A stretch of 62,357 bases of DNA from Candidatus Saccharimonadia bacterium (GTDB taxonomy: Bacteria > Patescibacteriota > Saccharimonadia > CAILAD01 > JADZBC01): the NCBI GenBank assembly GCA_041907025.1, contig JAYRIB010000062.1, positions 1-62,357 of the forward strand, written 5' to 3'. A program made the position numbers and the translations under genes. Position 1 is the first letter of the stretch, and the number at the start of each line of letters is the position of its first letter. The notes under the pieces are model-generated. The model was not told the DNA's origin. It worked only from the letters and a program-made list of their open reading frames with translations, and searched no databases. Of this stretch, positions 5,916 through 45,977 are shown piece by piece.

Positions 5916-6027
5916 AAGCCTTATTGTACCAGAAGCCACTCTGCCCTCATAAGTATTGACTCCTTGGCAACCCAGTTGTAATCTATGCCTATCCCAAAGT
6001 CTGGGTGCACCTATCGAGAGGTAGAAC

Positions 6028-28339: not shown

Positions 28340-28431
<92 letters not shown>

Positions 28432-29129: not shown

Positions 29130-29204
29130 ACTTGTTGCAATTACTCCTGTTGTGTGGCTATAATAAGGTTAAGAGTAGCGCTAAGCAAGGATAAGGAGTA
29201 ATTT

Positions 29205-30123: not shown

Positions 30124-31461
30124 CTATTCGCTGCGCGAGATCTCTTGGGTAGTACGGGTAGCGGCTGTGTCCACGGCCGCTTGAGCATCGCCGCCACTGA
30201 GTACAGCGCCAATCATGTCACCAAAAATACCATCGACATTATAGCTGTTACCCTTATACCAGGTGGTTGCGCTCAGCGTCTGCTTAGCAAATGGCCCAAG
30301 GTACTTGTCTTGACCTTGTTGAATCACCAGGTCTTTACGGGCCGCTGGACGATAGGTAGCAATACTATAGCGATTAAGCTGCGTACGAGTTGAGACAAAG
30401 CGCAGGAAGTCCCAAGCCACTTCCTCATGCTTGCTCGTCTTACTCACCTGCTCAACCCAAAACTCCGCGCCGTTGATTGGCTTGGCGGTGTTTACCTGGG
30501 GCAGGGCGGCCATCTTGTACTTCAGGCTTGGTGCGGCGGCGTCAATCTCTGGGGCGCGGTAGGCATAGTCAATCATCATGGCAACCTTGCCAGCCTTAAA
30601 GGCGTCTAGTGAGTTGCCAAGTTTATCGTTCCAAGAATAGTTTGGGTTGGCAGGCTTAGCAAAGCTGGTGTAAAAGCTCATAGCCTTAGCGCTGGACGCG
30701 TAGCCGGTGCTATCTGGTTTGTTAAACGTAGCCTGGGTGGGGGGAGTGTTGGTCATGATAGCGCCGTTTTGCTGCATCAGAACCGATACAATCGCAGTGT
30801 AATCGGTAACTGAGGCGCTGCCCAGCGCTACCCCTGCTTGGGTTATGTCCGCGCCGTTTTTAATAGCCAGCTTAGCGTTCATATCCATCAGCTCCTGCCA
30901 AGTCTTGGGGGGGCTCGAAATTCCGGCTTTGCTCAGCAGGTCTTCGTTATAAAACAGCCCGAGCGTCGAGACGCTATAGGCCAAGCCCTCCACCAGCTGC
31001 CCGCTGACCAGTTTGCTTGAGGCCACATCTACAAAGGTGTCTTTAAACTCTTGGGCGCTGTAGACGGTGTCTGGTGCCGGCTCATGGTAGGCGCGGTAGC
31101 GCGGTAGCCAATCATCTTTGATGGAGTATATGTCCGGCAGTTTGTTGGCTTTAGCCGCCTCTGTCAGCTGTTTGTCGTAGGTGGCAACGTCAACATTGCT
31201 CAGCTTGATCGTCACATTCGGGTGAATCGCCGCATAATCCTTGATGATCTGATTAAACGGCTCCGTGCCGTCAACTGTGCGCCAGTAGCTGAGAGTAATC
31301 GGCTCAGACGGAAAAACGATCCGTGATCCCGACGGCTCTATACCCTCTACTGTTATGGAGTTTTGCTGCGTAGTTGGCACCATCAAGGCCAAGCCAACCA
31401 GAATAGCCAACGATATGCTTACCGCAACAATAGTAGCCTTATGTCGTTTCAGAGACTTCAT
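30124..31461 (-). CDS. ABC transporter extracellular solute-binding protein (family 1, sugar-type)
   Basis: 445 aa with an N-terminal membrane anchor or signal. The overall SBP_bac_1-like pattern is present (LSYWRT...NP.V.I......Y..KL......LPD). No permease or ATPase genes are adjacent in this window. Confidence 0.8.
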   Translation of the reverse strand: MKSLKRHKATIVAVSISLAILVGLALMVPTTQQNSITVEGIEPSGSRIVFPSEPITLSYWRTVDGTEPFNQIIKDYAAIHPNVTIKLSNVDVATYDKQLTEAAKANKLPDIYSIKDDWLPRYRAYHEPAPDTVYSAQEFKDTFVDVASSKLVSGQLVEGLAYSVSTLGLFYNEDLLSKAGISSPPKTWQELMDMNAKLAIKNGADITQAGVALGSASVTDYTAIVSVLMQQNGAIMTNTPPTQATFNKPDSTGYASSAKAMSFYTSFAKPANPNYSWNDKLGNSLDAFKAGKVAMMIDYAYRAPEIDAAAPSLKYKMAALPQVNTAKPINGAEFWVEQVSKTSKHEEVAWDFLRFVSTRTQLNRYSIATYRPAARKDLVIQQGQDKYLGPFAKQTLSATTWYKGNSYNVDGIFGDMIGAVLSGGDAQAAVDTAATRTTQEISRSE

Positions 31462-31552: not shown

Positions 31553-31915
31553 CTAAAACTGCTTGATAACAAAGTTGGCAATACTATAAGCAAGCAAAGA
31601 CACAACCAAGCCAATAACGGCGTACAAGATAGTGTCCTTAGCTGCCGTGGTGTTCTTAGAATCACCACCCGAGAGGACGTAGCGGAAGCCACCGATGATA
31701 ATCATAATAACTGAGATTATCCCAACTGCCAGAATGAGTACATTGGTAATGTTCCCGAGCTGTGATTCCAGTGTTGGGCCACCCGTCTGTCCTGTACATT
31801 CAGCGCCAGCAGCAGCTCCACCGGTAAGGTCGCAAGCAGCAAAAGCCCGCTGTGAGCCGAGGAGAACGGCTGTTGCAGCGGACGACAAGATAAGGTTTAG
31901 CCTAGCTAAGCGCAT
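31553..31915 (-). CDS. T4SS pilin-like protein (TrbC/VirB2-like), paralog 1
   Basis: Start set at M49 of the track ORF (MRLARLNLILSSAATAVLLGSQRAFA = signal peptide). It has a variable region, then two hydrophobic helices joined by GGFRYVLSGGDSKNTTAAKDTILYA. Confidence 0.7.
   Translation of the reverse strand: MRLARLNLILSSAATAVLLGSQRAFAACDLTGGAAAGAECTGQTGGPTLESQLGNITNVLILAVGIISVIMIIIGGFRYVLSGGDSKNTTAAKDTILYAVIGLVVSLLAYSIANFVIKQF
31619..31699. repeat. 81-nt near-identical segment shared with 31986..32066
   Basis: By my reading the two 81-nt segments differ at about 5 positions. They encode the conserved inter-helix loop of pilin paralogs 1 and 2. Confidence 0.8.
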
Positions 31916-31919
31916 GGCT

Positions 31920-32273
31920 CTAGAACTGGTCAATGACGAACTGCATAATCGAGTAGGATAGCAGGGCCACAACCACACCGATGATGGCGTACAGGATGGT
32001 ATCCTTAGCTGCCGTGGTGTTTTTAGAATCACCACCTGAGAGGACGTAGCGGAAGCCACCGATGATCAGCATGATGACCGAGATGATACCAATCACGGTA
32101 ATCATGATGTTTGTTACGTTGGCGACCGAATCAGTTAAGCTGGTGGTCTGTAGGTTACCCTTAGCCGCATTAATGCCCTCTTGAGCATCAGAGTTAGCAG
32201 CCATTGCAGTGCTTGCGCTCAGCATAGCGCCAGTAAGGCCTAAGCCGACTTTAGAAGTGAGTTGTTTGAACAT
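31920..32273 (-). CDS. T4SS pilin-like protein, paralog 2
   Basis: 117 aa with the same architecture. GGFRYVLSGGDSKNTTAAKDTILYAIIGVVVALLSY. Confidence 0.7.
   Translation of the reverse strand: MFKQLTSKVGLGLTGAMLSASTAMAANSDAQEGINAAKGNLQTTSLTDSVANVTNIMITVIGIISVIMLIIGGFRYVLSGGDSKNTTAAKDTILYAIIGVVVALLSYSIMQFVIDQF
31986..32066. repeat. 81-nt near-identical segment shared with 31619..31699
   Basis: See the partner feature. Confidence 0.8.
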
Positions 32274-32371
32274 GTTTATGATTTCTCCTTAACAATTATG
32301 CTTAGATTGTAACGTAGCGGAGAAGGTTTGACAATACAAGAGCCTGAGAACATGCGCAGGAGAGTGTAGGC

Positions 32372-32722
32372 TTAGAATCGGCCGAGTACGAAGTTGACTA
32401 TCGCACCAGCTAAGAGGGTAATAACGAGGCCAATGACTGCATAAAGGATTGTGTCCTTAGCCGTGCCGGCCTTCTTGGAATCACCAGCAGATATAGCATA
32501 CATTATCCCACCGACAATAATCATAATGACAGAGATGATACCCGCGGCGTACAGGAGGGTGTTAGTGATATTGGGGATTATTTCATCCACGGTAGCCGGA
32601 GTGCCACTAAGATTGTCTATTTTAATTCCAGTAGATGTGGCTGCGGATGCGACAGCTCCTACCCGCAGTGTGGCTGCGGTAGAAATCATGGCGACAGTAA
32701 TTAACTTAAGTAATCTCTTCAT
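32372..32722 (-). CDS. T4SS pilin-like protein, paralog 3
   Basis: 116 aa. GGIMYAISAGDSKKAGTAKDTILYAVIGLVITLL. Confidence 0.7.
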   Translation of the reverse strand: MKRLLKLITVAMISTAATLRVGAVASAATSTGIKIDNLSGTPATVDEIIPNITNTLLYAAGIISVIMIIVGGIMYAISAGDSKKAGTAKDTILYAVIGLVITLLAGAIVNFVLGRF

Positions 32723-32765
32723 AGTTGAGATTATAGGCTAATACCAAATAAGAATAAAGTCTGGC

Positions 32766-33152
32766 TTAGTTAAGAGCTGAGAGTACGAAGTTTCCAATAG
32801 CCGCCGCGCTGATAGCAAGTACTAAGCCCAAGATTGCATAAGTAATGGTAGTCTTAGCCTTCTTGGTTCCGCTAGGATTGCCAGTTGATACAGCTAACTG
32901 GATGCCGCCTATGATTATAAATATTACCGAAACAATACCTACGGCGGTAAATGCCAAGTTAGTAACGTTAGATATGAGTTTTTCAACACCTGCAAGACAC
33001 GATGTATCAACTCCATCAAAGATACCTCCCGAAGCAGTAGTTCCTTGGCAGTTGTCTCCCGACGCAGCTCGAGAAATTGCAGGAATTACAAGGAACAAGG
33101 CTAACTGCACAAGAGTCAAAAGTCTTAATGCGATATTCTTACAGCTAGGCAT
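32766..33152 (-). CDS. T4SS pilin-like protein, paralog 4 (Cys-containing variable region)
   Basis: 128 aa. GGIQLAVSTGNPSGTKKAKTTITYAILGLVLAI. Confidence 0.65.
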   Translation of the reverse strand: MPSCKNIALRLLTLVQLALFLVIPAISRAASGDNCQGTTASGGIFDGVDTSCLAGVEKLISNVTNLAFTAVGIVSVIFIIIGGIQLAVSTGNPSGTKKAKTTITYAILGLVLAISAAAIGNFVLSALN

Positions 33153-33160
33153 GGTCGTCC

Positions 33161-33541
33161 TTAGCCTCCTATCGCAATTCCGAGTAAGCTCAGAATCGCC
33201 CTAAAGCTTATGAGGAGCACCAAACCAACAATCGCATTAGTAAGTCGGCTCTTTGCCGACTTAAGTCTGTCTGGGCTATCAGCAGCAGAGGCCATCTGTA
33301 CTCCGGATATAACCACGGCGAGGACGAATAGGGAACCAAATATGCCAACCATCCAGTTCGCGACATTCCCTATGAACTCGTATATATCGCTCGTGCAAAA
33401 CTCCTGAGGCAAGAAGCTACACTCAACAGCGGCGGAACTACTTGGTAGTACTGCCTCTTCCGCCCTTGCAAACTGCGGCAAGATCATCATCGCCAGAGCA
33501 AGAGTAGTAACTATGACAGTTTTGATGTATCGAACCTTCAT
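33161..33541 (-). CDS. T4SS pilin-like protein, paralog 5 (most divergent)
   Basis: 126 aa with a signal peptide, two Cys residues and two hydrophobic helices joined by SGVQMASAADSPDRLKSAKSRLTNAIVGLV. Confidence 0.6.
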   Translation of the reverse strand: MKVRYIKTVIVTTLALAMMILPQFARAEEAVLPSSSAAVECSFLPQEFCTSDIYEFIGNVANWMVGIFGSLFVLAVVISGVQMASAADSPDRLKSAKSRLTNAIVGLVLLISFRAILSLLGIAIGG

Positions 33542-33637
33542 TATCCTCCTTGCTGTTGACTAAATAACCTTAAAGATGCTTGTTCTGGCCATAAGCACTA
33601 TACCTACTAGTGCCTATTATACTATAATCACCATATA

Positions 33638-36040
33638 ATGATGCGAACTCTTCGTAAAGCAATTCTTCTATTATTCGGCCAACTAGCGCTAGTTAGCCTA
33701 TTGTTGTTTGTGGTGCTTTTAGTACCCTCAACGTCGCATGCTGCAAACTCCAAAGTCCCTAGTGCCTATGCGGCAGTAGACAAAGACGGGGGGCTAAGCA
33801 TCTCTGGTACAGAGTTCTTCTGTGATTTTGCCAGCACGGCCGAGGTAATTTGCAAAAGAAGTTCGACCGCAAGCGAACTCACGGCCGACGGTACATCAAA
33901 AGAAATGTCATATTGGTTTGACCCGGAGTTATCTAAAAAAGCAGGGCACGATGTATTCAGACCCGACGGCGGCACTCGGCAAGCCGAGTTTGGCTGGCTC
34001 CACTTCCCTAGGTCCGCTCAAGGAGACTACTCACTCGGTCAAGTATCGACCAGCTCCTTAGATGGCGAGGGTGGTGTTTACGACGATGATGTAAATACGG
34101 ATAAGTTTAAAAAGGATGTAGGGGACACTTCAACCTGCTCAGTAAGGAAGTTCCGCAATGGGAAGGGTACTATTACCTGTAAGATCGGGGGCAGCAAGGG
34201 GGGTAGGAGCGTAACCGTAACTCAGTACAAAACGGGTTATTCAAACTTTACAGAGCTAAAGAAGTGCGACAAGGGCGGGCTTGGTTTTTTCCTCTGCCCA
34301 ATTCAAAACATGTTCTGGGACACCATTAGGCTTACTACTGGTTGGATAGGCAACATATTAGACGTCAATACAAGTAATTTTCAGAACACTACCATAAGGG
34401 AGGCGAGCAATAATCTTCTCGGAGTAGCTAACGCCGTCTACGCCCTTGTTTTTCTGGTTATTATATTTGCTAACGGCCTCTCCTTGAACCTAGATAGCTA
34501 CATGCTGAAGAAGATGGTACCGCGACTCGTAGTAGCTATTATTCTTTCGCAATTCGCATTCTTCCTCACAGGCGCCTTTATTGATTTTGGAAACGTTCTA
34601 GGCAGAGGTGTGCAGGCCTTCTTTGAGCAGCTAGCCCCTGTCACCAACCCAGGGGCTGGCCTCTTTGCCGTCAGTGCAATTGCTGGTTTGGGAATAATGA
34701 TCGCGTTGATACTGTCTCTGTTTATATTAATTGCCATACTCATTGCGTTGGTGGTACTCATGATTCGACAAGCTATTCTTTATGTACTAATACTGGTCGC
34801 GCCGCTAGCTATTGCCGCCAGGGTACTACCGAATACTGATAAGCTCTTCAAAATGTGGCTCGATAACCTCATTAAGCTAGTGCTCATGTACCCTATAGTC
34901 GTAGCAATCATATCTGGTTCAGCATTCTTGGGCAGCGTTATGATGGGCAACAAGAACTCTTTAGCAATTCAGATTATGGGAGTGTTGTTGCCATTCATTG
35001 GGCTTGCACTATTGCCTAAAGCATTTAAGTGGAGCGGCAATATAATGCATGCTACTGGTGGCAAGCTGGCTGGCTGGGGTGCTGGAGGCTTTAAAAAAGG
35101 AGTTGTTCAGCCACTCAAAGGGGCTGCCAAAGACACTCTTAATGACCAAAGACGCCTCCAGGGCGCGAAGCTTGCGGCCTCAGACAGCAAGCTAGCACAG
35201 CTGGGTAGCGGAGTCGTTGGAGGAAAACTTGGCGCATCACTCCAAACCAGAAAGGGCCATGCAGAGCGTCTCCGCATGCAGGCAAATGCAGCAGCCGAAG
35301 AACGCAAGCTAGAAGACGCGAAAATGTCAGTACTCAGTGGTCCAGCTCTCCACAAAGAAGCTGAGGAAGCTGGTAAAGCTCTGGCTAAAAACCCAGCCGA
35401 TATTCGGGCTAAGGCCAGGATGGAGTCAGTGTTAGCTCGTGCCGGAGCAGTGAGTGATATGAACGCCGTTGCGCGAGCGAACAACGCGTTCACCTCATCG
35501 ATGACAGATAAGGTTGCTGCAAATGATACTTGGGGTAGTGCTCTGGGAAATTCAGGTATCATGGGTGATATCAAAGAGAAGAGTCCAGAACTTAGTAGTG
35601 TTGGTACGTTCTCGTTCGATGCTGCAGGCAGCAGGAGCCTAGATGAGACATGGTCGGTAAAAGACCAGGGTAAGCACGCTGGGGGCACTGGAACTGGTAC
35701 ACCTAATGGAGTTCGTATTGCAGTAACTAACACTAAAGCAATTGATCTTAGTGGTAAGAACCGCTCGGGGCTTGCGGGTCTTTCAAAGGACACTGTCAAA
35801 TCTATAGCTACCGCTGTGGCCGACCCAGCTTCTAGAGCTGCTCAGCTCAAGAGCCTAAGTATTGAAGAAATGGGGCAATTAACCGATCCACGCTACGCTC
35901 CAAAGGATCCTGGAGCGAAGGAACATTGGAGGAAAGTTGCCGATGCTGTTGTCGCTGACTATGGCGCTCTAGCAGCAACCGACCCTGCAGCCAGGGCAAA
36001 GGTTAATGCTGCAAATCAAATTATTCGCGCAGGGTGGTAA
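33638..36040 (+). CDS. VirB6/TrbL/PrgH-like polytopic T4SS channel protein
   Basis: 800 aa. N-terminal signal/TM, a ~250-aa Cys-containing extracytoplasmic domain, at least 6 hydrophobic helices (e.g. LFAVSAIAGLGIMIALILSLFILIAILIALVVLMI), and an Ala/Lys-rich tail. Assigned by topology and by its position next to the PrgI-like and VirB4 genes. Confidence 0.6.
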   Translation: MMRTLRKAILLLFGQLALVSLLLFVVLLVPSTSHAANSKVPSAYAAVDKDGGLSISGTEFFCDFASTAEVICKRSSTASELTADGTSKEMSYWFDPELSKKAGHDVFRPDGGTRQAEFGWLHFPRSAQGDYSLGQVSTSSLDGEGGVYDDDVNTDKFKKDVGDTSTCSVRKFRNGKGTITCKIGGSKGGRSVTVTQYKTGYSNFTELKKCDKGGLGFFLCPIQNMFWDTIRLTTGWIGNILDVNTSNFQNTTIREASNNLLGVANAVYALVFLVIIFANGLSLNLDSYMLKKMVPRLVVAIILSQFAFFLTGAFIDFGNVLGRGVQAFFEQLAPVTNPGAGLFAVSAIAGLGIMIALILSLFILIAILIALVVLMIRQAILYVLILVAPLAIAARVLPNTDKLFKMWLDNLIKLVLMYPIVVAIISGSAFLGSVMMGNKNSLAIQIMGVLLPFIGLALLPKAFKWSGNIMHATGGKLAGWGAGGFKKGVVQPLKGAAKDTLNDQRRLQGAKLAASDSKLAQLGSGVVGGKLGASLQTRKGHAERLRMQANAAAEERKLEDAKMSVLSGPALHKEAEEAGKALAKNPADIRAKARMESVLARAGAVSDMNAVARANNAFTSSMTDKVAANDTWGSALGNSGIMGDIKEKSPELSSVGTFSFDAAGSRSLDETWSVKDQGKHAGGTGTGTPNGVRIAVTNTKAIDLSGKNRSGLAGLSKDTVKSIATAVADPASRAAQLKSLSIEEMGQLTDPRYAPKDPGAKEHWRKVADAVVADYGALAATDPAARAKVNAANQIIRAGW

Positions 36041-36048
36041 AGTAGGCG

Positions 36049-36885
36049 ATGCCACAGTACAAAGTCCCCCAAAACGTAGAGAGCGAAGACACAATCCTTG
36101 GTCCGTTGACGATCAAGCAGTTCATCTATGTCGTGATTGCGATTGGGTGGGGGTTCTTATGCTGGCGCGTGATAGGAGTAGCTCCTGTGGTGGCGATTGC
36201 GCTCATCCTACCAGTCTCAGGACCACTGCTGGCCTTGGGCTTGATTCGTCGTGAGGGTCAGAGCTTCGAAACTTACTTTGTTGCGATGATTCGCTTTTTG
36301 CTTGTACCGCGCAAACGAACCTGGCACAAAGACGAGGCTAGGGTGATTATTAAAGCCGAAGAAAAGAAGCCGATTGAGCAAATGCCGACGCGTAATCAAG
36401 CCCAGGTACGCGGCGAGCTCCGCAAACTCGCTACCATTGTAGATAGTCGCGGACGCATCCCCAAGGGCACCGACGTGCAGGCGGCCGATGCCAATGTAGC
36501 CGGCAGCGCGCTTAGTCAACGCGTCGTAACGCCAGAGGCTACCCAAGTAGCAGGGGAGATTATATCCACCAAAGTTGCGGCTCCCCGCACCGACATGCTC
36601 GACATGCAACACAACCCACAGGCTGTCGCGGTTGGTGAACTACTTAAGACCTCTGGAGACGATATGCGGGCGCAAGCAATTGCCAATATGCAAAAGGCGG
36701 CCACGGAATCCGCTGCCACACCTGCGCCGCAAGCACAAGCACCTTCGCAAGACGAGGGTCAAAATGCTATACTACAAAGAGCAGTGCAAAACAGCGATAC
36801 CATATCTGTTCAGCAACTTTCTGACCAGGTGAATCGCCAAAACGTACTGCAACAAGGCAAAAGCGCACAAGTTCGCCAAGCCTAA
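36049..36885 (+). CDS. PrgI-family (VirB3-like) T4SS membrane protein with a long Ala/Gln-rich tail
   Basis: The N-terminus YKVPQNVESEDTILGPLTIKQFIYVVIAIGWGF, followed by a second helix, is the PrgI/TcpE-type signature. Confidence 0.6.
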   Translation: MPQYKVPQNVESEDTILGPLTIKQFIYVVIAIGWGFLCWRVIGVAPVVAIALILPVSGPLLALGLIRREGQSFETYFVAMIRFLLVPRKRTWHKDEARVIIKAEEKKPIEQMPTRNQAQVRGELRKLATIVDSRGRIPKGTDVQAADANVAGSALSQRVVTPEATQVAGEIISTKVAAPRTDMLDMQHNPQAVAVGELLKTSGDDMRAQAIANMQKAATESAATPAPQAQAPSQDEGQNAILQRAVQNSDTISVQQLSDQVNRQNVLQQGKSAQVRQA

Positions 36886-36922
36886 TTTTTCGCTTTAGTA
36901 CTAATACCGCAGGTAACTTAAG

Positions 36923-37963
36923 ATGGCCAACGTAGCTCAACCTAATCCTCATATCACGGACCAACAGCGCCAAGCTCTGGCCTCTGTAACGCCGCCTAAA
37001 TCCAAGAAGGACCAGCGCGCCAGTACTCAGAATCACCTGATGTTCTCCGAAGTCCGTGACAACATCGTCGTCATGCGCGACGGCTCACTGCGCATGGTAA
37101 TCTTGGCTTCAGCCCTCAACTTCGACCTTAAGAGTGCCCGCGAACAAGCGGCAATTGAGTACTCATTCCAAGGATTCTTAAACGGCCTGCACTTTCCTGT
37201 TCAAATCATTGTGCGCTCACGCAAGATTGATTTAGATAACTACCTAACTAAGCTTGAGCAACGCCAGGCGGAGCAAGAAAACGCTCTGCTGGCCGGACTG
37301 ATGGAAGACTATATATTCAACATCCGCGGGCTCCTCGAGGACGTTAACATCATGTCGAAGTCGTTTTACGTGATTGTACCGTACTTTGTGCAAGCAGTTA
37401 GCAAGGATAATATAGCTAGCAAGATAAGTAGCTTACTGAAGGCGAGCGAGGACGTGGTGCAAAGCAGCGCTGATTACGAAACGCACAAGCGGGACTTGTT
37501 GCAGCGCACTAATTTGGTCGCTCAAGGCTTAGCGCAGATCGGGGTGCGCGCCGCTGTTCTGTCCACTCAGGAGCTGATTGAACTTTACTATGGTTCATAT
37601 AACATCGATGAAGCTCAGAACCAGCCACTTGGCGATGTGGAGGGCATTAGCACCCCAGTGGTTGGTCGCTCGGGCCCTGCCCCTGCACCACACGGCCCAG
37701 AACCACGAGCTGCGGACCCCGACGACATGTTTGCGGCAGCACGTCACGCCCATCCAGAAATGCACGCTGTGCCAACACCAGCCCCGGTAGCGGCACCAGT
37801 CCCAGCAGCAACCCCTACACCGCAAGCTGCGCCCGTGCCACAAGCCACTACTGCTCAGCCTAGTTCTGTAGCTCAAGCAGCGCCTCAACAAGCTCCACAG
37901 AGTGTAGTGGCTCAGCCTGGGCAAGCAACTCAGATAAGTCAGCAACCAGGAGGGCAGAAGTAA
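36923..37963 (+). CDS. T4SS-associated protein: VirB4-N-terminal-like domain plus a Pro/Ala/Gln-rich tail
   Basis: VRDNIVVMRDGSLRMVILASALNFDLKSAREQAAIEYSFQGFLNGLHFPVQIIVRSRKIDLDNY resembles the first domain of VirB4/TraC proteins. No Walker motifs. Its stop overlaps the virB4 start (TAATG). Confidence 0.5.
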   Translation: MANVAQPNPHITDQQRQALASVTPPKSKKDQRASTQNHLMFSEVRDNIVVMRDGSLRMVILASALNFDLKSAREQAAIEYSFQGFLNGLHFPVQIIVRSRKIDLDNYLTKLEQRQAEQENALLAGLMEDYIFNIRGLLEDVNIMSKSFYVIVPYFVQAVSKDNIASKISSLLKASEDVVQSSADYETHKRDLLQRTNLVAQGLAQIGVRAAVLSTQELIELYYGSYNIDEAQNQPLGDVEGISTPVVGRSGPAPAPHGPEPRAADPDDMFAAARHAHPEMHAVPTPAPVAAPVPAATPTPQAAPVPQATTAQPSSVAQAAPQQAPQSVVAQPGQATQISQQPGGQK

Positions 37964-39816
37964 TGGCCGACAAAAAGCCTAAGATTGACCCAAAGGTTCA
38001 AGCCGAGATTAATCGCCGCTTAGCCGTCCAAGGCCAGGCAGACAAGATCTACCGCGAAGGCGTAGTCAGTTTGCGTGATATCATTGCGCCGGCCTCGTTC
38101 GAAGTAGAAAGTAACTTCCTTAAAATCGGTAAGCGCTATGCGCGCACGCTGTTTGTCTTTGGTTACCCCCGCACCTTGTTCACGGGATGGCTTTCGCCTT
38201 TGATTAACATTGATGAGGTCATCGACATTAGCCTCAATATTATCCCAGTGGAGAGCAAAGTAGTACTTGATAACCTGCGCAAGAAGGTAGGGCAACTGGA
38301 GGCTAACTACAACATTAACCAAGAAAAGGGTAAGGTTCGTGACCCAGGATTAGAAGCCGCCATTCAAGATGCTGAGGAGTTGCGCGACAGCCTGCAAGTC
38401 GGCTCGGACCGATTCTTCCGCTTTGGGCTTTACATTACCCTCTACGGTAAAGACCTCGAAGAGCTCGACCTGGTTGGGCGTAAGATCGAAAGCATGCTCG
38501 GCAGTAGTCTGATCTACACCAAGCCAGCTACCATCCAGATGGAGCAGGGCTTTAACTCTACCCTGCCACTCGGCCTCGACCAACTCAATGTCTACCGCAA
38601 CATGAACACTGGTGCGCTCTCAACGTCTTTTCCGTTTACCACCGCCGAGCTCAGTCAAGACGACGGTGTGCTCTACGGTATTAACAGGCACAACAATGGC
38701 CTGGTCATCTTTGATCGCTTCAGCTTAGAAAACGCCAATATGGTGGTGTTTGCCAAGTCGGGTGCTGGTAAAAGTTTCGCGATTAAGCTGGAGTGTTTGC
38801 GTTCCCTCATGATGGGTACCGAAGTCGTCATTGTTGACCCCGAAAACGAATACCGGACCTTGTGTGACGCGGTCGGCGGAAGCTACCTACACCTTTCACT
38901 TAACAGTAATACCCGCGTCAATCCGTTTGATTTGCCAACCACCGTTGATCCTGAGGAGGCCGAGAACGCCCTGCGCGCCAACATCATCATGCTGCATGGC
39001 TTGCTCCGGCTGATGGCAGGGGAGATGAACCCAACAGAAGAAGCCGACATGGATATGGCGCTGATTAATACCTATGCGCGCAAAGGTATTACCAACGATC
39101 CGCTCACTCACACGGCCGTACCACCCGTTATGTCCGACCTCTACAACGAGCTCAACGCCATGCCAGGCACTGGCCCAGCACTGGCGTCACGCTTGCGCCG
39201 CTTTACCGAAGGCACGTTCTCGGGTATCTTCTCCCAACAATCAAACGTTGAGCTCAACAATAAGTTTGTGGTCTTTAACATTCGCGACCTCGAAGATGAG
39301 CTTAGGCCAATTGGCATGTATATTGTACTGAACTACATTTGGAACCGCGTGAAGACTGACAAGCGCAAGCGCATCCTGGTAGTAGATGAAGCCTGGCAAC
39401 TACTACAGTACCAAGACTCAGCCATGTTTATGTTCTCGATTGCCAAGCGCGCCCGTAAGTACTTCCTAGGCCTCACGACCATCTCGCAAGATGTAGAGGA
39501 CTTCTTAAGCACCCGCTTAGGCCGGGCAATTGTAAACAACTCCTCGCTTCAACTCTTGCTCAAACAAAACCCTGCGGCTGTCGATATTGTGGCTGACACT
39601 TTTAAGCTCACCACTGAGGAGCGTAGTCGGCTCAGCCAGTTCCCAGTTGGTGAAGGGTTATTCTTCGCCGGTATGAGCCATGTAATTCTACGCATTCTCG
39701 CTTCGCCTATGGAGGAGCAGTTGATTAGTACGAACCCGCAATACTTACTTGATCAACGTGAAGCCCAGGCGAGTGCGGACGCAGCCGCGCTGGCCGCCAG
39801 AACGGCGCCTCAATAA
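37963..39816 (+). CDS. virB4: VirB4-family T4SS ATPase
   Basis: 617 aa. Walker A FAKSGAGKSFAIK, Walker B ILVVDEAW, and the downstream GLTTISQ motif. Confidence 0.88.
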   Translation: MADKKPKIDPKVQAEINRRLAVQGQADKIYREGVVSLRDIIAPASFEVESNFLKIGKRYARTLFVFGYPRTLFTGWLSPLINIDEVIDISLNIIPVESKVVLDNLRKKVGQLEANYNINQEKGKVRDPGLEAAIQDAEELRDSLQVGSDRFFRFGLYITLYGKDLEELDLVGRKIESMLGSSLIYTKPATIQMEQGFNSTLPLGLDQLNVYRNMNTGALSTSFPFTTAELSQDDGVLYGINRHNNGLVIFDRFSLENANMVVFAKSGAGKSFAIKLECLRSLMMGTEVVIVDPENEYRTLCDAVGGSYLHLSLNSNTRVNPFDLPTTVDPEEAENALRANIIMLHGLLRLMAGEMNPTEEADMDMALINTYARKGITNDPLTHTAVPPVMSDLYNELNAMPGTGPALASRLRRFTEGTFSGIFSQQSNVELNNKFVVFNIRDLEDELRPIGMYIVLNYIWNRVKTDKRKRILVVDEAWQLLQYQDSAMFMFSIAKRARKYFLGLTTISQDVEDFLSTRLGRAIVNNSSLQLLLKQNPAAVDIVADTFKLTTEERSRLSQFPVGEGLFFAGMSHVILRILASPMEEQLISTNPQYLLDQREAQASADAAALAARTAPQ

Positions 39817-39849
39817 GCTATAATAAGGCTATGAAGAAAGTATTGTACG

Positions 39850-42800
39850 ATGGCTCGACCAGCTGAGAGACTCGAAGATGACCGCCAAGAGGGTGGACTA
39901 CTTGATAATGACTTAGGTATACAACCACGCAGCAGCCGCGTAGGACAGGGCGCCTCTGAACATGGTGAGAATATCCGTGTGAGCCCAGTACAGCAAGGGA
40001 TTCATACCTCGAGTGGTCCTGGCGGCTCAGGACCAACACCCTCTGAGAAGCATAGTCTTAAAGATGGGAAAGCTATTGACCCGCAAAGCGCACTTACAAA
40101 AAAAGCTGCGGGAAAAGCACTAGACCACACTCCCGGAATGGTATCGAAGGCTGAGCAGGCTGAGCAAGGATCACTTGAGAAAGCTGGTCGCAAAGCTGCT
40201 TCTAAGGTTGCTAAAAAAGCAGCTCAGGCAGCCGCAACAGATTCAGGAGTCGGTGCGCCACTTGCAAAGGCAGCTGGCGATATTGCAGAAGAAGCTGTTA
40301 AGCGAATTGATGTCAAAGGTGGTGCCAAGAAGAGCGTCAAGGTAGTTGCTATTGCAGCTTTTGGTTTTATTGTTGTTGCTATGCTGCCTTTACTAATGTT
40401 TACATATATCGTCACTCAGCCATGGAAAGCGGTACAACAGGTTTTAAAGGACTCTAGTTTTACAAACTTTGCACTCAGTGCTCGTAAACTTGCTATTGGC
40501 GATGGTAATAATCAAACATTAATGGCTATCGCGGGCAGCATGCCATATGAGGCGGACTACAAACCTGGTAGCGCCATTGCTGCGACTGCAGGTCAGCGCC
40601 CAGAGCCAGGCACCCTGCTAGATGTAATATCAAAAGTTGATTATGAAAAATCACGCAACTTGTTTAAAAATGTGAGCTGTCCCTACAAGGTTAAAACTAA
40701 GCAAGTGGTCGCTAGTGATGGTGCGCAAAGAGCAGTTATTGACAAGGTAGTAGATGCAAAGGGGGATACGGCTGATATCGCAGATGCTGATGTGTTTGAC
40801 TGTATCCTTGAACAATATCCTGTTTTCGAAGCTATGATGCGTAGCCCCGAAGCACGCAAGATCAATAAGCAAATGAAGATAAATCTGTCCTACGCAGAGA
40901 AAAAGGACTCGGAAGCTATAAAAGATAAGCCTAAGGAAGAAGTAAAAAGGGTACTCCATAAGAAGACCACAGACCGAGTTTGGCGAAACGCTAAAGATAC
41001 TAAAGGTCTCTTATACCCAGACAGCTGTCAGGAAGACTTCAAGCCTACGGGAGACAAAGCAAATAAAGCAATCTTGGAAGTTGCGAACGACTTATTGTGT
41101 GGAGATTTAGCTGAGAATATTCAAATCAACTACCCCGTCGAAGACTTAGATGATGACTTTAGTAAGCAGACTGTCAAGCAGCGCATTGATGAGGCAGATG
41201 TTATATGTGTTTTCTATGATAAGCTCAACGCTGACCCTGAGGCCGCCAAGAAGCAACGATATGATAGGGCACTTTCTTCAGCAAGAGCTGGAATTTCAGC
41301 ACTTACACTAGCGGACACTGGAGTGGTGCCGGGTGACATATCTGTAGAGGAATTAGATAATGATTTCTATAAAATATCAAATTTTGCATCCTCACGAGCT
41401 TATAATCAAGAAATTAATGGTACGAGAAACGGTGTTCAGATGGACCCAGAGGCGATACCGACAAGAGCTATCGGCCTGACTAAAGCATACTTTGACAGCC
41501 TATCCGATCCTAATCGACCTGGGGGACAGTTATTAAACCTGGGGGAGCAGTGTAAAAAATTCAAAGCAAACAAACCCACTACTTTGACTCAAAATGTAAG
41601 AGATATTCAGAGCTTAGCGGCAATCGCAAAAGGGCAAATAGCGCGCGAGAATCAAGACTTTTACGGCGGCACTTCGGCAAATCTTGTCTCTACTAACGAC
41701 CTTATTATCCGCACAATCAGGTTGGTTTCAAACATAAGTAACAGTGGTGCTGAGGGAGGTGAGAACAACTTTAACCGTATGACAGTAGGAGCTAAAAACA
41801 CAATGTATAACTACACCATCTCGCTACTTGGGGGTAGCTATCAAACAGATGCGCAGGCAAACGAGGACAGTATAGCAGTTGGAGTTATGAAAAAAAATCG
41901 AGATAAGCAGAGTAGTATGCTTGCTCGTATATTTGATACGAAAAACCCACGTTCTCTAGCTTCCAGGATCGCTGCTGGCTCTACCGCAACACCGAAGCAG
42001 ATTACCGAGAATACCACGCGTTACGCTGTTAATATCCTAAACCCTATCAAGGCACTTGCTGATATTAATGCCGGAATTGCATTCATTGGTTACGGTGAGA
42101 CGAATATTGCCTTGGCAGCCCGAAGTGATGACATGGAGTACTGGAAAATTGACACCACAGGAACTACAACCAATCTCGATACCCTTAAGAATGCTGCATA
42201 CATAGAGAGGCTAAAAAAATCTGGTGCTAACACAGAACTTTTTGCATCCTTTGATAAGTGTATGGAGACCTACTTCCCAGATAAACAAGCTGTAGACGAA
42301 GCTAAAGATGAAAACTGTATGATTATGCGTGAAACAGACGAAGGAAGAAGGTTAGGTGCCGCCAACCCAGCTAAACGTAGTTTGGCTAGGAGCTATGCTA
42401 CTTATAAGGGCAATATGAACTTTTACACCGCTTGGGCCAAGCTTAGTAGCGACGAGCAAGATGACAGTATTTATGCTAAGGGTGAAAACAGTAGTGGTTT
42501 TGGGGTCGGTGGAGCGGTCGGGGCTGATCCAGATGGACCACAGTCTGACCCAGGCGCGGATACATCTGGAACCGATTGTCCTCAAGAGCCCGGCATAACA
42601 ACAGCGCCAGAAGACACTAAGAACGGCGTAGACGCCAAGGGTGTGGTTCAAACATACGGCCCTGGCAGAGTTCCGAAGAATAAGATTAAGCTCTGTGTCG
42701 TACAGGGCATCAGGGTAAATGTCTCGGTAGCGTCTAACCTCAACAAAATGGTGTCAGCAGCTGGCACTAGTGGGCTGGCGTTATCTGGTAGTGGCTGGCG

Positions 42801-43053
42801 CAGTTATGATAGACAAAAGGAATTGCGAATTTCTAACGGTTGTCCTGCGGATGATAATGCACCTTCAAGCTCTTGTAGAGTACCAACTGCTCGACCCGGA
42901 AGCTCAAACCACGAACAAGGTGAAGCGGTCGACTTCAATAATTCGCGAACTAGAGGCACAGCCGTCTATGCCTGGCTCAAAAGTAATGCTAGTAAGTATG
43001 GTTTCTTCAACTTCCCGAGAGAAGCGTGGCACTGGTCAAGGAATGGTAAGTAA
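39850..43053 (+). CDS. Large membrane-anchored protein with a C-terminal M15 (VanY-type) peptidoglycan peptidase domain
   Basis: 1067 aa. Disordered N-terminus, TM helix VKVVAIAAFGFIVVAMLPLLMF, and a ~700-aa unrecognised ectodomain. The C-terminus SGWRSYDRQKELR...PGSSNHEQGEAVDF...FPREAWHW carries the H-x6-D...H zinc ligands of VanY/M15. Confidence 0.7.
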   Translation: MARPAERLEDDRQEGGLLDNDLGIQPRSSRVGQGASEHGENIRVSPVQQGIHTSSGPGGSGPTPSEKHSLKDGKAIDPQSALTKKAAGKALDHTPGMVSKAEQAEQGSLEKAGRKAASKVAKKAAQAAATDSGVGAPLAKAAGDIAEEAVKRIDVKGGAKKSVKVVAIAAFGFIVVAMLPLLMFTYIVTQPWKAVQQVLKDSSFTNFALSARKLAIGDGNNQTLMAIAGSMPYEADYKPGSAIAATAGQRPEPGTLLDVISKVDYEKSRNLFKNVSCPYKVKTKQVVASDGAQRAVIDKVVDAKGDTADIADADVFDCILEQYPVFEAMMRSPEARKINKQMKINLSYAEKKDSEAIKDKPKEEVKRVLHKKTTDRVWRNAKDTKGLLYPDSCQEDFKPTGDKANKAILEVANDLLCGDLAENIQINYPVEDLDDDFSKQTVKQRIDEADVICVFYDKLNADPEAAKKQRYDRALSSARAGISALTLADTGVVPGDISVEELDNDFYKISNFASSRAYNQEINGTRNGVQMDPEAIPTRAIGLTKAYFDSLSDPNRPGGQLLNLGEQCKKFKANKPTTLTQNVRDIQSLAAIAKGQIARENQDFYGGTSANLVSTNDLIIRTIRLVSNISNSGAEGGENNFNRMTVGAKNTMYNYTISLLGGSYQTDAQANEDSIAVGVMKKNRDKQSSMLARIFDTKNPRSLASRIAAGSTATPKQITENTTRYAVNILNPIKALADINAGIAFIGYGETNIALAARSDDMEYWKIDTTGTTTNLDTLKNAAYIERLKKSGANTELFASFDKCMETYFPDKQAVDEAKDENCMIMRETDEGRRLGAANPAKRSLARSYATYKGNMNFYTAWAKLSSDEQDDSIYAKGENSSGFGVGGAVGADPDGPQSDPGADTSGTDCPQEPGITTAPEDTKNGVDAKGVVQTYGPGRVPKNKIKLCVVQGIRVNVSVASNLNKMVSAAGTSGLALSGSGWRSYDRQKELRISNGCPADDNAPSSSCRVPTARPGSSNHEQGEAVDFNNSRTRGTAVYAWLKSNASKYGFFNFPREAWHWSRNGK

Positions 43054-44003
43054 TGAATAAACGAACCATAATCCTTATTTGCGCCGCCATAGTGCTTCTT
43101 GCTAGTGTGCTTACGGTAATATCAATCCTATCTGCTCCAAAAAAAGCTGAAGTGATCGTGCCTTCTGGAGTAAGCGGGCTATATGGCGTAAGCGGTGGCA
43201 AGATATATTACCGAGTAGGCCGATCTCTGATTGCCAAACCAGTGAAGGGTAAGGGGCTAGAGACAATCACAAACCAGTTTAACACCGCCACAATTTCGCC
43301 TGACAGAACTGAATTATTCTACCGGACCATGGTTAATTATGTGATTGACGGATATAAACTCAACCTTGAAACACAAGACTCAAGTAAGTACATCGATATT
43401 ACGGATGGAATATGGTGCGGCCTGAATTTATTCACTATCTCTGAGCAAGGACCTTCTACCTATACCATCAAGGATGCAAAAGATAAGACATATTTCCAGA
43501 ATGTGCCAACAGAAGAAGTATATTGTCTAGATGGCGACCTCGTCTATAATGCCAGCAGTAGCCTCTCTGATTCTGAAGAAGATGGTACGCTTACTCTTAA
43601 ATACCTATCACAAACGAAGGGTAATGCCAAGATTCAAATTAGTTTACAAGAATCTCCGCTCCTACAGAATAATAAGGAACTAAGCTACTTAAACAGCTCA
43701 GGTAGCTTAATCTTAACTAATGCAACGAAGAATACTGTCTTGCCCTTGAGAGTGTCCAATGCAATTACTACGCAACACAGCTCAGGTGAGATGTATGTCA
43801 TAGACAGTCCAAGTAGTGAAGAAAATGGTGTAGATCTGTATCGGGTGGACTTACTGAGTAAGAACTTTGCCAAAGTGGCCTCATATGTGACGAACGCAAA
43901 TGTTGAGCAGAACATGTCGAATATCGACACAAATGTAGCCTTCGAGTACGAGAATTACCTCTACTTCATGGTTGGGAACTCAATTGTAAGGGTGGAACTA
44001 TGA
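43053..44003 (+). CDS. Membrane-anchored hypothetical protein (possibly beta-propeller-like)
   Basis: 316 aa with an N-terminal TM helix. Its start overlaps the upstream stop (TAATG) and its stop overlaps the next start (ATGA). Confidence 0.55.
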   Translation: MNKRTIILICAAIVLLASVLTVISILSAPKKAEVIVPSGVSGLYGVSGGKIYYRVGRSLIAKPVKGKGLETITNQFNTATISPDRTELFYRTMVNYVIDGYKLNLETQDSSKYIDITDGIWCGLNLFTISEQGPSTYTIKDAKDKTYFQNVPTEEVYCLDGDLVYNASSSLSDSEEDGTLTLKYLSQTKGNAKIQISLQESPLLQNNKELSYLNSSGSLILTNATKNTVLPLRVSNAITTQHSSGEMYVIDSPSSEENGVDLYRVDLLSKNFAKVASYVTNANVEQNMSNIDTNVAFEYENYLYFMVGNSIVRVEL

Positions 44004-45319
44004 AGTCTACATTGCAACGATTCATCATGGCAGTCTCGGCTATAACGCTGTGCTTTAGTAGTATTGGTGTGCCGGGTGCCGAAGCATTCACCCCTCAGCA
44101 ACGCAAAGAGATCGAGCTGAGGACGTTCTATGACGCTACTGACATTAACTTATGTACCCAGGCCGACTCGACTGCTGGGTCTGATTCAGCGGCTCAGCCT
44201 ACGGCTGGAGCACCTGATACAAGTGGTGGTGACAAGGGTAAGGTATATATGATCGGTGATTCCATTACCGAAGGCACCCAATCACAGCTTACAACGGCAC
44301 TGAAAGATAAAAAGTATAGCAATGTAGTGATTAATGGCAAATCGAGCCGTCGCCTTAGTGTAGGCAACACCACGCTCGACGGCGTAAGCGTATTCCAACG
44401 AGACAGAGCCCAATGGACTGACGCCTCGACTATCATCATCGAGCTAGGTACTAACGGTGGCGTGTCGGGAGCCAACATTAATAAGATTGTTGAACTCGCT
44501 AAAACCTCTAAAGCCAAGCTTTATTGGGTTAATATTGCAGTCGATAACTCCAAACGCAGTGGTGCCGACATCGACACCGGTCCGATTAATAAGCTACTGA
44601 GTGACGCTGCATCCAAGGGTGGCTTTACCATCATTGACTGGGCTAGTGCGGTCAGGAAAAACCCTGACTTCATTGATCCGAACCCAGCGACTGGCCTAGG
44701 AGTACACCCCTTTACCGCCACTGGTCGACCTGGTTTTGCCAATACAGTAGCGAGTGGCGTTAGTGGCGCGTTTGCGAGTATTGGAGACGCGGCAGCGGCA
44801 ACTGGTAGCTCGGCTGACTGTAATGCAGCCACCGTCGTGAGCAGTACGACTCTCAGCGGTAACACAAACGCGGAAGTAATATGGAACTTCCTGAGCTGTA
44901 AGGGACTGAGCGCTAATCAAGTAGCGGGTATTATGGGGAATATTCAGGCAGAGTCTGGTTTTAACCCTGGGATTGAAGAAAAGACACCGCGGACGAGTAA
45001 GGGTTATGGTATTGTGCAGTGGACGTTTGGACGCCGAACAAACCTAGAGAATTATGCTAAAACACGTGGTAAACCAGCCAGCGATCTAGGTGTACAGCTC
45101 GACTTCTTATGGATTGAGCTTAATACTGCTTACAAAACAAATACTCTCGATCCGATCAGGGCAACGACATCGGTTGAAGTGGCGACCGATATATTCCTGC
45201 GCAAATTTGAGCGCCCTGCTAATCCGGACCGGACTAAGCCTGTCCGACTTGGCTTCGCGCAGAGTATACTAAGACAAACATGGGCTAAAGACGGAGGGAC
45301 CGACTGTGCAGCAAAATAG
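44000..45319 (+). CDS. Secreted bifunctional cell-wall hydrolase: SGNH/GDSL hydrolase plus tail-lysozyme-like muramidase domain
   Basis: Signal peptide, then GDS block VYMIGDSITEG. The C-terminal IMGNIQAESGFNPGIEE...GYGIVQWTFGRR...FER is typical of the phage-tail-lysozyme family. Confidence 0.7.
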   Translation: MKSTLQRFIMAVSAITLCFSSIGVPGAEAFTPQQRKEIELRTFYDATDINLCTQADSTAGSDSAAQPTAGAPDTSGGDKGKVYMIGDSITEGTQSQLTTALKDKKYSNVVINGKSSRRLSVGNTTLDGVSVFQRDRAQWTDASTIIIELGTNGGVSGANINKIVELAKTSKAKLYWVNIAVDNSKRSGADIDTGPINKLLSDAASKGGFTIIDWASAVRKNPDFIDPNPATGLGVHPFTATGRPGFANTVASGVSGAFASIGDAAAATGSSADCNAATVVSSTTLSGNTNAEVIWNFLSCKGLSANQVAGIMGNIQAESGFNPGIEEKTPRTSKGYGIVQWTFGRRTNLENYAKTRGKPASDLGVQLDFLWIELNTAYKTNTLDPIRATTSVEVATDIFLRKFERPANPDRTKPVRLGFAQSILRQTWAKDGGTDCAAK

Positions 45320-45329
45320 CTTTTGGACA

Positions 45330-45977
45330 ATGAATAAAAAGAATCTACTAATTATTCTTGGTATCGTCGCAGTTTCGCTGCTCGGATTGGTAATCTATAC
45401 TGCCGCGTCGTTTCGTGTAACAAATATTGATCCTGGTCAGAACACCACTATTCAAAGTTTAACGAAGACGGTTGTGTTTAGCTTTAGTAAAGACCTCTCG
45501 GCCTTCGATAGGCAGACTCAAATAAAAGGCGGTGAGGGGATTATTGCTGGCAGCAAGGTAGATGGTAATAAGCTCTATGTGCAGCTTAAGTCTATGGAGG
45601 GCAATCAGTCCTATGAATTGGTTTTAGTTGGTGTAACGGCAACTGACGGCTCAACTATTAACGAAGTTAGCTATAAGTTTAAGTACCTCTTTGACCCACA
45701 AGCCAGTGCGGCTACCGAGAAGGGCAGTAAGGACCCGCTTGTAACCAACCTACCTGTTAGCACTGATCAATACTACATTAGCTATGAACTACTTGATGAG
45801 CCGACCGCCGATGGCAAGACTGAGAAGCTCATTATCGCCTTACTTCTAACGAACGAGGACTTAGCAGACCCTCAAAAGGTAGCGAGTTACAAGAAAGCCG
45901 CCCTCGACTTCTTAGACTCTAAAGGCATCGTCGCTAGTAGTTACGTGGTTGAGTTCTCGCCACCTGAAGTGGAATAG
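45330..45977 (+). CDS. Membrane-anchored Ig-like-domain hypothetical protein
   Basis: ATG at 45330 (MNKKNLLIILGIVAVSLLGLVIY). The beta-rich ectodomain begins FRVTNIDPGQNT. It is the last gene of the T4SS-like operon. Confidence 0.55.
   Translation: MNKKNLLIILGIVAVSLLGLVIYTAASFRVTNIDPGQNTTIQSLTKTVVFSFSKDLSAFDRQTQIKGGEGIIAGSKVDGNKLYVQLKSMEGNQSYELVLVGVTATDGSTINEVSYKFKYLFDPQASAATEKGSKDPLVTNLPVSTDQYYISYELLDEPTADGKTEKLIIALLLTNEDLADPQKVASYKKAALDFLDSKGIVASSYVVEFSPPEVE

Follow-up and report, generated by a model that had tools for sequence, protein, structure and literature searches.

A monoderm type IV secretion system-like cluster near the replication origin of a Saccharimonadia bacterium, without coupling protein or relaxase

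INTRODUCTION

What is the task of an essential type IV secretion system (T4SS)-like machine with pilins in a monoderm bacterium? This is one of the main open questions of Patescibacteria biology, and it is raised again by a 62,357-bp contig of Candidatus Saccharimonadia bacterium (GenBank assembly GCA_041907025.1, contig JAYRIB010000062.1), the whole of which is the window analysed here. At positions 31553–45977 the window carries a divergent 13-gene locus, composed of five minus-strand pilin genes and an eight-gene plus-strand operon. We consider it very likely that this locus encodes an origin-proximal, chromosomal T4SS of the Patescibacteria type, orthologous to and colinear with SEML1_0004–0019 of Southlakia epibionticum ML1, and that it forms a pilus-building machine at the interface with the host rather than a conjugation apparatus, because the cluster contains neither a coupling ATPase nor a relaxase.

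The anatomy of this system, the missing coupling protein and relaxase, its proximity to the origin and the hypothesis that it serves as a conduit are all in print already, and the locus is thus a rediscovery of a published system. In S. epibionticum, genes of the locus are essential for epibiotic growth as judged by transposon sequencing (Wang 2023, Cell; PMC10633639); the system was described there as similar to Gram-positive conjugative T4SSs, with an essential pilin array and without recognised coupling and relaxase proteins (PMC10633639). A conserved VirB4/VirB6/VirB2 region with an array of small secreted proteins has likewise been reported (McLean 2020). A role as conduit or in penetration of the wall has been printed as speculation (PMC10633639, PMC11665869, PMC12857230): a 2024 perspective calls the role of the system completely unknown (PMC11665869), and a 2025 review discusses the pilus as a conduit for uptake from the host (PMC12857230). 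In the literature after 2024 we found no functional study that settles the role. Our own additions are small, namely an orphan 316-aa operon member, coordinates that back a split VirB4, a fusion of SGNH hydrolase and lysozyme, and the shuffling of hydrolase domains across species. These details could guide experiments; they leave the established picture unchanged and do not make the function easier to test than cultivated strains already allow, and the significance rests with the published work.

RESULTS AND DISCUSSION

A conserved locus without coupling protein and relaxase

All 13 open reading frames (ORFs) that an earlier annotation of this DNA (the original prediction) had placed in the locus are present at the coordinates it gave (Table 1), and the anatomy that it described holds, i.e. 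a T4SS-like cluster of the monoderm type whose pilin array is divergent, set in the chromosomal core beside dnaA and dnaN. Homology to T4SSs is not confined to VirB4, as PrgI, a TrsD-like protein, a VirB6-like protein and VirB2-like pilins can all be detected. Of the two halves of a T4SS, the one for pilus biogenesis (VirB2, VirB3, VirB4 and VirB6) is represented by the known parts, together with wall hydrolases; the one for substrate recruitment, composed of coupling protein and relaxase, is missing. We scanned 49 ORFs of the contig with Pfam (all ORFs of at least 186 aa in a greedy ORF map, plus the five pilins, DciA and RnpA; fifteen shorter map ORFs of 70–169 aa lay outside the scan) and found among them no VirD4/TraG-type coupling protein, no relaxase and no Rep or Par protein, as had been predicted, and no integrase family. 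As the window is the entire contig, such statements on missing genes hold for the contig and not for the whole genome. Neither att-like flanking direct repeats nor tRNA-associated att sites were found; the only repeats were those between pilin paralogues and 16–21-nt matches at chance level. The G/C content of the locus is not sharply unlike that of its flanks. With coupling ATPase and relaxase missing and the signs of an ordinary integrative and conjugative element (ICE), such as att repeats and an integrase, not found, we agree with the original prediction that a conjugative role is unsupported.

Table 1. Features of the T4SS-like locus in the window, in order of position
Feature	Position	Strand	Evidence
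VirB2-like pilin 1 (120 aa from ATG 31915)	31553..31915	-	PF18895 E 2e-11
VirB2-like pilin 2 (117 aa)	31920..32273	-	PF18895 E 2.6e-10; TrbC/VirB2 E 2.9e-4
VirB2-like pilin 3 (116 aa)	32372..32722	-	PF18895 E 8e-11; TrbC E 2.8e-7, 31.1 bits (cut-off 27.9)
VirB2-like pilin 4 (128 aa)	32766..33152	-	PF18895 E 1.1e-10
VirB2-like pilin 5 (126 aa)	33161..33541	-	PF18895 E 1.3e-12
Divergent intergenic region, 96 bp	33542..33637	.	Between pilin array and operon
Extended VirB6/TrbL-like polytopic membrane protein (800 aa)	33638..36040	+	TrbL E 0.0025 at residues 325–451
PrgI/VirB3-like protein (278 aa)	36049..36885	+	PF12666 PrgI E 2.4e-15, 57.3 bits (cut-off 27)
TrsD/'TraC-like' soluble protein (346 aa)	36923..37963	+	Precomputed family PF26593 TraC-like
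Short VirB4 ATPase (617 aa)	37963..39816	+	TraG P-loop domain E 2.4e-28
Membrane-anchored protein ending in M15/VanY peptidoglycan peptidase (1067 aa)	39850..43053	+	VanY E 6e-13, residues 955–1057
Orphan N-terminally anchored beta-rich protein (316 aa)	43053..44003	+	Translationally coupled at both ends
Secreted SGNH hydrolase–phage-tail-type lysozyme fusion (439 aa)	44000..45319	+	Phage_lysozyme2 E 3.2e-39; DUF459/SGNH 29.7 bits (cut-off 27.2)
N-terminally anchored Ig-like protein (223 aa)	45306..45977	+	Weak CopC E 0.003, Big_5 E 0.017

A scan of one genome per GTDB species returned at least 581 relatives of the window VirB4, and the loci of the best 80 were compared. To these 80, nearly all of which are labelled Saccharibacteria/Saccharimonadia, the window VirB4 is 61–88% identical over about its full length. 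The gene order is conserved in the 80 species loci: hsp20, pilins, VirB6, PrgI, TrsD-like protein, VirB4, large hydrolase, lysozyme, one or two small proteins and finally recF-dnaN-dnaA. VirB4 was detected in all 80 loci, the TrsD-like protein in 79, PrgI in 69, VirB6 in 60 and recF in 48 (in 47 of these downstream on the opposite strand). As both the gene order and the position between hsp20 and recF-dnaN-dnaA persist down to a VirB4 identity of 61%, the core locus appears to have been inherited vertically and not as a mobile element.

A convergent DciA gene follows the operon at a distance of 15 bp, and beyond it lie recF, dnaN and dnaA on the minus strand, followed by rnpA, yidC and mnmE on the plus strand. 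recF, dnaN and dnaA begin 0.3–2.8 kb beyond the locus (recF at 0.3 kb); the distance of 2.5 kb to dnaN that had been claimed is wrong, since 1.4 kb separate the end of the operon from the near end of dnaN. Of the 20 DnaA boxes of the contig (one mismatch allowed), 6 fall in 48715–48750 and 50195–50247, two stretches of 36–53 bp that flank dnaA. Because of these clusters the description of the locus as lying next to oriC is reasonable, and with recF, dnaN and dnaA adjoining, this part of the original prediction is borne out. GC skew was dropped as a marker of the origin, as it is confounded by gene orientation and the clustering of DnaA boxes is more informative. The operon is encoded on the strand opposite to dnaA-dnaN-recF, as it is in all but one of the related loci that reach recF. 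If oriC is located there, transcription of the operon, which is presumably essential, would run head-on against the replication fork, and that of the pilin array in the same direction as the fork.

The ATPase and its membrane platform

Sequence comparison makes the VirB4 identity of the 617-aa protein secure. It scores above the cut-off of the NCBIfam model for CD1110-family VirB4 (373 bits; cut-off 325; E 2.9e-111; model positions 177–732 of 752), it matches the C-terminal domain of VirB4 in the PDB (4AG5, E 8e-61), and both Walker motifs that had been read from it are in place (Walker A, AKSGAGKS; Walker B, ILVVDEAW). The gene before it encodes the 346-aa protein, which matches NCBIfam TrsD (E 1.2e-4) and positions 94–233 of the 894-position VirB4_plasma model (E 4.6e-6), and has no match in the Pfam copy that was scanned. 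Its orthologues give a clearer signal: TrsD is matched by 37 of 41 (best E 2.5e-10) and the N-terminal part of VirB4_plasma by 35 of 41. Together with the family PF26593 these matches support the earlier description of the protein as similar to the VirB4 N-domain, and we regard it as a predicted relative of the extreme N-terminal region of full-length VirB4; a remote relation of TrsD to the VirB4 N-terminus is already on record (PMC12102498). A search of the PDB with the profile of the 346-aa family gave zero matches. The 617-aa VirB4 covers positions 293–893 of the same VirB4 model. Because the two proteins match separate stretches of one model, it looks as if the function of VirB4 were divided between a TrsD-like protein and a short VirB4, encoded by two translationally coupled genes. 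The coupling junctions that had been proposed for the operon can indeed be read from the sequence (TAATG at 37960–37964 and 43050–43054, ATGA at 44000–44003), and in the first of these the stop codon of the TrsD-like gene overlaps the start codon of virB4.

The putative platform for this ATPase is formed by the two proteins encoded further upstream. The 800-aa protein has an N-terminal signal or transmembrane (TM) segment, ~230 aa outside the membrane, five TM segments at residues 260–459 and a hydrophilic tail of ~340 aa. Taken by itself its TrbL match is below the cut-off; TrbL is the sole recurrent family among 38 positional orthologues (12 of 38, best E 1.4e-5), and the orthologue in the related locus L082 carries TrbL_3 (PF19590). 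The predicted VirB6-like identity, weak for this protein alone, is thus backed by its orthologues. The PrgI/VirB3-like protein contains two TM segments followed by a long hydrophilic tail.

The pilin array

The five tandem pilins all score above the Pfam cut-off for PF18895 (T4SS_pilin), and each consists of a predicted signal peptide followed by two hydrophobic helices, which form a VirB2-like hairpin. Pilin 3 additionally matches the NCBIfam Mbov_0395 pilin-like conjugal transfer protein (E 3.8e-8). For the first pilin, the ORF list had given a start at GTG 32059, with which it would overlap pilin 2; this start is unlikely, and ATG 31915 is the most likely one. Pairwise amino acid identities range from 21 to 55%, with the highest value for pilins 1 and 2 and with pilin 5 as the most divergent member (21–30% to the other four). 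The 3' ends of the promoter-distal pilin genes 1–3 are 62–74% identical in DNA (74% for pilins 1 and 2), which suggests that these three are fairly recent duplicates.

Between array and operon, the intergenic region is A/T-rich and contains TTGACT and TATAAT-like hexamers; by consensus scan it holds no canonical promoter pair. Both divergent promoters presumably sit in this region. Within the operon, the 12-nt motif GCTATAATAAGG, which includes a perfect -10 hexamer, is found in the 33 bp that separate virB4 from the gene of the 1067-aa protein (39817–39834), and a second time upstream of hsp20 (29157–29174). The copy in the gap may act as an internal promoter from which the distal half of the operon is transcribed.

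Wall hydrolases and surface proteins

The 1067-aa protein fills the slot of a VirB1-type wall hydrolase. It has one TM segment (165–183), its VanY domain reaches 49 bits (cut-off 25), and it matches the D-Ala-D-Ala carboxypeptidases 5ZHF and 6A6A of the PDB (E 3e-7). The 439-aa protein has a predicted signal peptide; its lysozyme domain resembles phi29 gp13 in the PDB (E 3.5e-16), and its SGNH domain matches 6VJP/6WN9 (E 1.4e-5), deposited as 'Acetyltransferase', which we take to be the C-terminal domain of the peptidoglycan O-acetyltransferase OatA.

In the relatives, the slot after VirB4 is always taken by a protein of 640–1370 aa, whose long non-catalytic body keeps its position and size across L001–L080. 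The C-terminal catalytic domain of the protein in this slot varies (n = 44; VanY in 10, M23 in 7, CHAP, M74 and NlpC/P60 in 2 each). In the slots that follow, Phage_lysozyme2 is present in 35 of 64 proteins, variably joined with M23, SGNH, glucosaminidase, SLT, amidase or CHAP domains. The catalytic domains thus appear to be swapped between species in a modular fashion. Two tandem FemAB-family genes and a VanW/PG_binding_4 protein (3877–6179, 56584–58446) are further wall-related genes of the contig, and are not tied to the T4SS cluster.

The 223-aa protein had been described as an anchored Ig-like protein. An N-terminal anchor is predicted; the Ig fold is suggested by a weak Big_5 match, below the cut-off, and the match of the L082 orthologue to Big_5 is weak again. 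Its counterpart by position in S. epibionticum is the Ig/PEGA-like SEML1_0005.

An orphan gene in the operon

The 316-aa protein matches no family of Pfam or NCBIfam, and its own family is tiny: a search of 5.8 billion clustered proteins returned only 6 clusters, and one of 1.84 billion returned 8 representatives. Homologues are encoded in the same operon slot in L082/L083 (L082 10001–10945) and in L085 (5396–6358), which, where the context is visible, has the gene of the VanY-ending protein on one side and that of the SGNH-lysozyme on the other. None of the 80 GTDB species loci contains a homologue, not even L001 with its 88% identical VirB4. From this distribution the gene would be a lineage-specific insertion in a narrow subclade.

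What the machine may do

The picture that we favour, a pilus-building machine at the host interface, can be put together from the known roles of the families, from which every one of the following steps is taken. Five Sec-exported VirB2-like pilins would insert into the membrane. A hexameric VirB4 ATPase, made of the separately encoded TrsD-like N-terminal piece and the short VirB4, would dock via PrgI/VirB3 on the VirB6-like polytopic platform, pull the pilins from the membrane and polymerise them, so that a pilus or tube is formed. Peptidoglycan would be cut by the M15 peptidase, anchored in the membrane, and by the SGNH-lysozyme, which is secreted, and the two would open a passage across the cell's own wall or that of the host, and the anchored Ig-like and beta-rich proteins may be accessories at the surface.

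Several observations weigh against this picture or against parts of it. To our knowledge, a pilus of this system has yet to be observed in a Patescibacterium, and for this reason its assembly is inferred from the biology of VirB2 and VirB4 in diderms. When the profile of the TrsD-like family was compared with that of the VirB4 N-terminus from this same locus, no relation emerged (probability 0.2%); diversity is low in both alignments. For the 346-aa protein the AlphaFold2 model has a mean predicted local distance difference test (pLDDT) score of ~50, and its Foldseek matches are noise; for the 316-aa protein the model, all-beta, is likewise at a pLDDT of ~50, and the fold search gave only weak matches to beta-propellers (template modelling score ~0.2). 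Nothing like VirB8 or VirB5 was recognised in the window: for the NTF2 fold of VirB8 there is no sequence match, and the two anchored candidates are beta-rich (316 aa, with a low-confidence model) and Ig-like (223 aa). Finally, many Patescibacteria genomes contain VirD4-like genes at other sites, and that of S. epibionticum has one that is not essential (PMC12102498); the genome studied here may have one as well.

As the hydrolase domains are shuffled across species, there is room for a more specific hypothesis, which we put forward tentatively and with low confidence. The hydrolases would be aimed at the wall of the host and exchanged between lineages to match the chemistry of the host peptidoglycan. 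The OatA-like SGNH domain would remove O-acetyl groups from the host peptidoglycan and thereby open it to cleavage by the fused lysozyme, stem peptides would be trimmed by the M15 peptidase, and the pilus built by VirB4 would reach through the gap and serve as a tube for feeding or injection, with the 316-aa protein as a lineage-specific add-on for recognition of the host.

Other tasks have to be weighed against a host-interface pilus. McLean et al. proposed that the array proteins are secreted subunits or effectors and not pilins, in which case the machine would be a translocator of the Ptl kind that exports these or other proteins into the host. This proposal draws on the analogy to Ptl made by the same authors, on the predicted signal peptides of the array proteins and on the lack of a coupling protein, which the cluster shares with Ptl and Brucella VirB (PMC12102498). 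We nevertheless hold it to be unlikely, given that all five array proteins exceed the PF18895 cut-off and show the two-helix hairpin of VirB2, that the VirB7/9/10 core and VirB11 are not present, and that the best-matching TM7x array protein shares just 11% of its amino acids with subunit S1 of pertussis toxin (McLean 2020). Export of other, unlinked effectors is compatible with a pilus-building machine.

Slightly more doubtful is a machine for the import of host DNA, nucleotides or other building blocks, comparable to H. pylori ComB or archaeal Ced, with nutrient acquisition as the cause of essentiality. Saccharibacteria cannot make nucleotides, comEC is dispensable in S. epibionticum, and the T4SS has been named as a candidate route (PMC11665869); a ComFC/GntX-like gene is located nearby (28467–29129), and the window VirB4 weakly matches the models of the import ATPases CedB (E 1e-10) and CedD (E 9e-5). 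These matches, however, stay far below the cut-offs, and the P-loop of the VirB4/HerA type that the proteins have in common accounts for them; in the window operon we found neither a DNA-binding component nor a nuclease, and import lacks experimental evidence in any Patescibacterium.

A housekeeping machine for the cell's own wall growth or division, essential for reasons unrelated to the host, would account for the two peptidoglycan hydrolases among core genes and for the essentiality of the genes in S. epibionticum, yet it is highly improbable, as no role in wall growth is known for a set of VirB4, VirB3, VirB6 and VirB2, and as a conserved housekeeping reaction would not lead one to expect catalytic domains that are freely swapped between species. 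Least credible of all is the transfer module of an ordinary or decaying ICE with VirD4, relaxase and oriT outside the contig: the homology of VirB4, TrsD and PrgI to MPF_FATA conjugation genes, a tRNA-Ser gene 3 kb upstream of the pilins and the fact that the contig covers just part of the genome would fit, but the same placement between hsp20 and recF-dnaN-dnaA in dozens of species, the lack of mobility genes in the scanned ORFs and of att-like repeats, the inconspicuous G/C content, four of the 80 loci (L013, L018, L022 and L043) without a tblastn match to any window pilin upstream of virB6, and the restriction of relaxases to 103 Patescibacteria genomes in the published survey (PMC12102498) speak against it. 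Taken together, both an ICE remnant and a housekeeping role are unlikely, since synteny on the chromosome is conserved and hydrolase domains are freely exchanged.

Neighbouring genes

Between hsp20 and the pilins lies a gene for a solute-binding protein (30124–31461; SBP_bac_1, E 5.5e-26). As it is found at this position in just 5 of the 80 loci, it seems to have been inserted locally, at the edge of the T4SS locus. Just upstream of hsp20 are the ComFC/GntX-like gene, which encodes a phosphoribosyltransferase, and a gene for tRNA-Ser(CGA) (28340–28431). A competence-related GntX gene has been noted in the T4SS region of TM7x (McLean 2020).

Comparison with known systems

Translocators without a type IV coupling protein (T4CP) are known from diderms: like the window locus, Bordetella Ptl and Brucella VirB have no coupling protein of the VirD4 type. 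The Ptl locus furthermore adjoins an array of small Sec-exported proteins, as the window locus does; in the window these are pilins and not toxin subunits. Ptl and Brucella VirB comprise a VirB7/VirB9/VirB10 core, VirB8 and VirB11, whereas the 13 genes gave no match to any of these families, considered also for the comparison with ComB, a system to which VirB11 does not belong.

Closer in sequence are the monoderm systems of the mating-pair formation (MPF) class MPF_FATA (pCF10 Prg, pIP501 Tra, pGO1/pSK41 Trs and Clostridioides CTn/CD1110), with which the window shares a VirB4 above the CD1110-family cut-off and homologues of PrgI and TrsD. In both, a large membrane-anchored peptidoglycan hydrolase comes after the ATPase; the two are analogous in function and not orthologous. 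The window cluster differs from MPF_FATA systems in that it is without T4CP and relaxase (scanned ORFs of the contig), surface adhesin and recognisable VirB8-like protein, in that it is chromosomal and vertically inherited, and in its VirB2-type pilin array, which MPF_FATA systems are described as lacking (PMC12102498, PMC12857230).

Relatives of the TrsD-like protein with 29–32% identity are encoded on plasmids of Bacillus, Paenibacillus, Clostridium and haloarchaea, and on the Firmicute plasmids they adjoin VirB4, so that the split into TrsD and a short VirB4 is an arrangement common to these plasmids and the window locus. The gene order of the Clostridioides plasmid pESW1602 mirrors that of the window, with PrgI, a TrsD-like protein, a 640-aa VirB4 (30% identical to the window VirB4, E 2e-89), an 883-aa membrane protein and a 1066-aa M23 peptidoglycan peptidase. 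By BLASTP against these plasmid neighbours, the 1067-aa protein (compared with the 1066-aa M23 protein) and the 800-aa protein show no significant similarity. Because the large proteins share no sequence similarity, the ATPase core is best seen as homologous to monoderm machinery and the hydrolase as only analogous. On pESW1602, the one plasmid neighbourhood that was inspected, the module of PrgI, TrsD-like protein and short VirB4 adjoins Tad/CpaF pilus genes, and MOB-suite typed 75 of 124 plasmids with a TrsD-like match as non-mobilizable. Relaxase-less versions of the module may thus not be confined to Patescibacteria.

In a phylum-wide survey, the VirB4 clade of Patescibacteria is sister to MPF_FATA (Quinonero-Coronel 2025, Microb Genom; PMC12102498). 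This clade is characterised by an adjacent TrsD, PrgI/VirB3, VirB6, arrays of VirB2-like proteins, non-canonical hydrolases downstream of virB4, a near absence of relaxases and proximity to dnaA/dnaN (PMC12102498). The window locus shares these features, i.e. VirB4 with adjacent TrsD, PrgI/VirB3, VirB6, the pilin array, hydrolases other than VirB1, no relaxase or T4CP nearby and the position close to dnaA/dnaN. Nothing differs in kind; the most similar pilin pair, with 55% identity, is marginally higher than the maximum of 54% reported within arrays. Judged by VirB4 identity and component set, and not by a phylogeny against the MPF classes, the locus can be assigned to the Patescibacteria-type T4SSs.

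The most direct counterpart is the locus SEML1_0004–0019 of S. epibionticum ML1 (PMC10633639). The window has five pilins instead of six, carries the additional 316-aa orphan gene between peptidase and lysozyme, and is without counterparts of SEML1_0012 (NTF2/VirB8-like fold, non-essential) and SEML1_0013 (ABC-permease-like). The lysozyme is joined to an SGNH domain in the window and to glucosaminidase and cysteine-peptidase domains in S. epibionticum, and genes for DciA and the solute-binding protein are additionally present at the borders of the window locus. The remaining order and orientation are the same in both species, from dnaA-dnaN-recF through the Ig-like protein, the lysozyme-type hydrolase, the M15-ending protein of ~1100 aa, the VirB4 of ~612 aa, the protein of ~290 aa, PrgI and the VirB6-like protein to the divergent PF18895 pilins and Hsp20.

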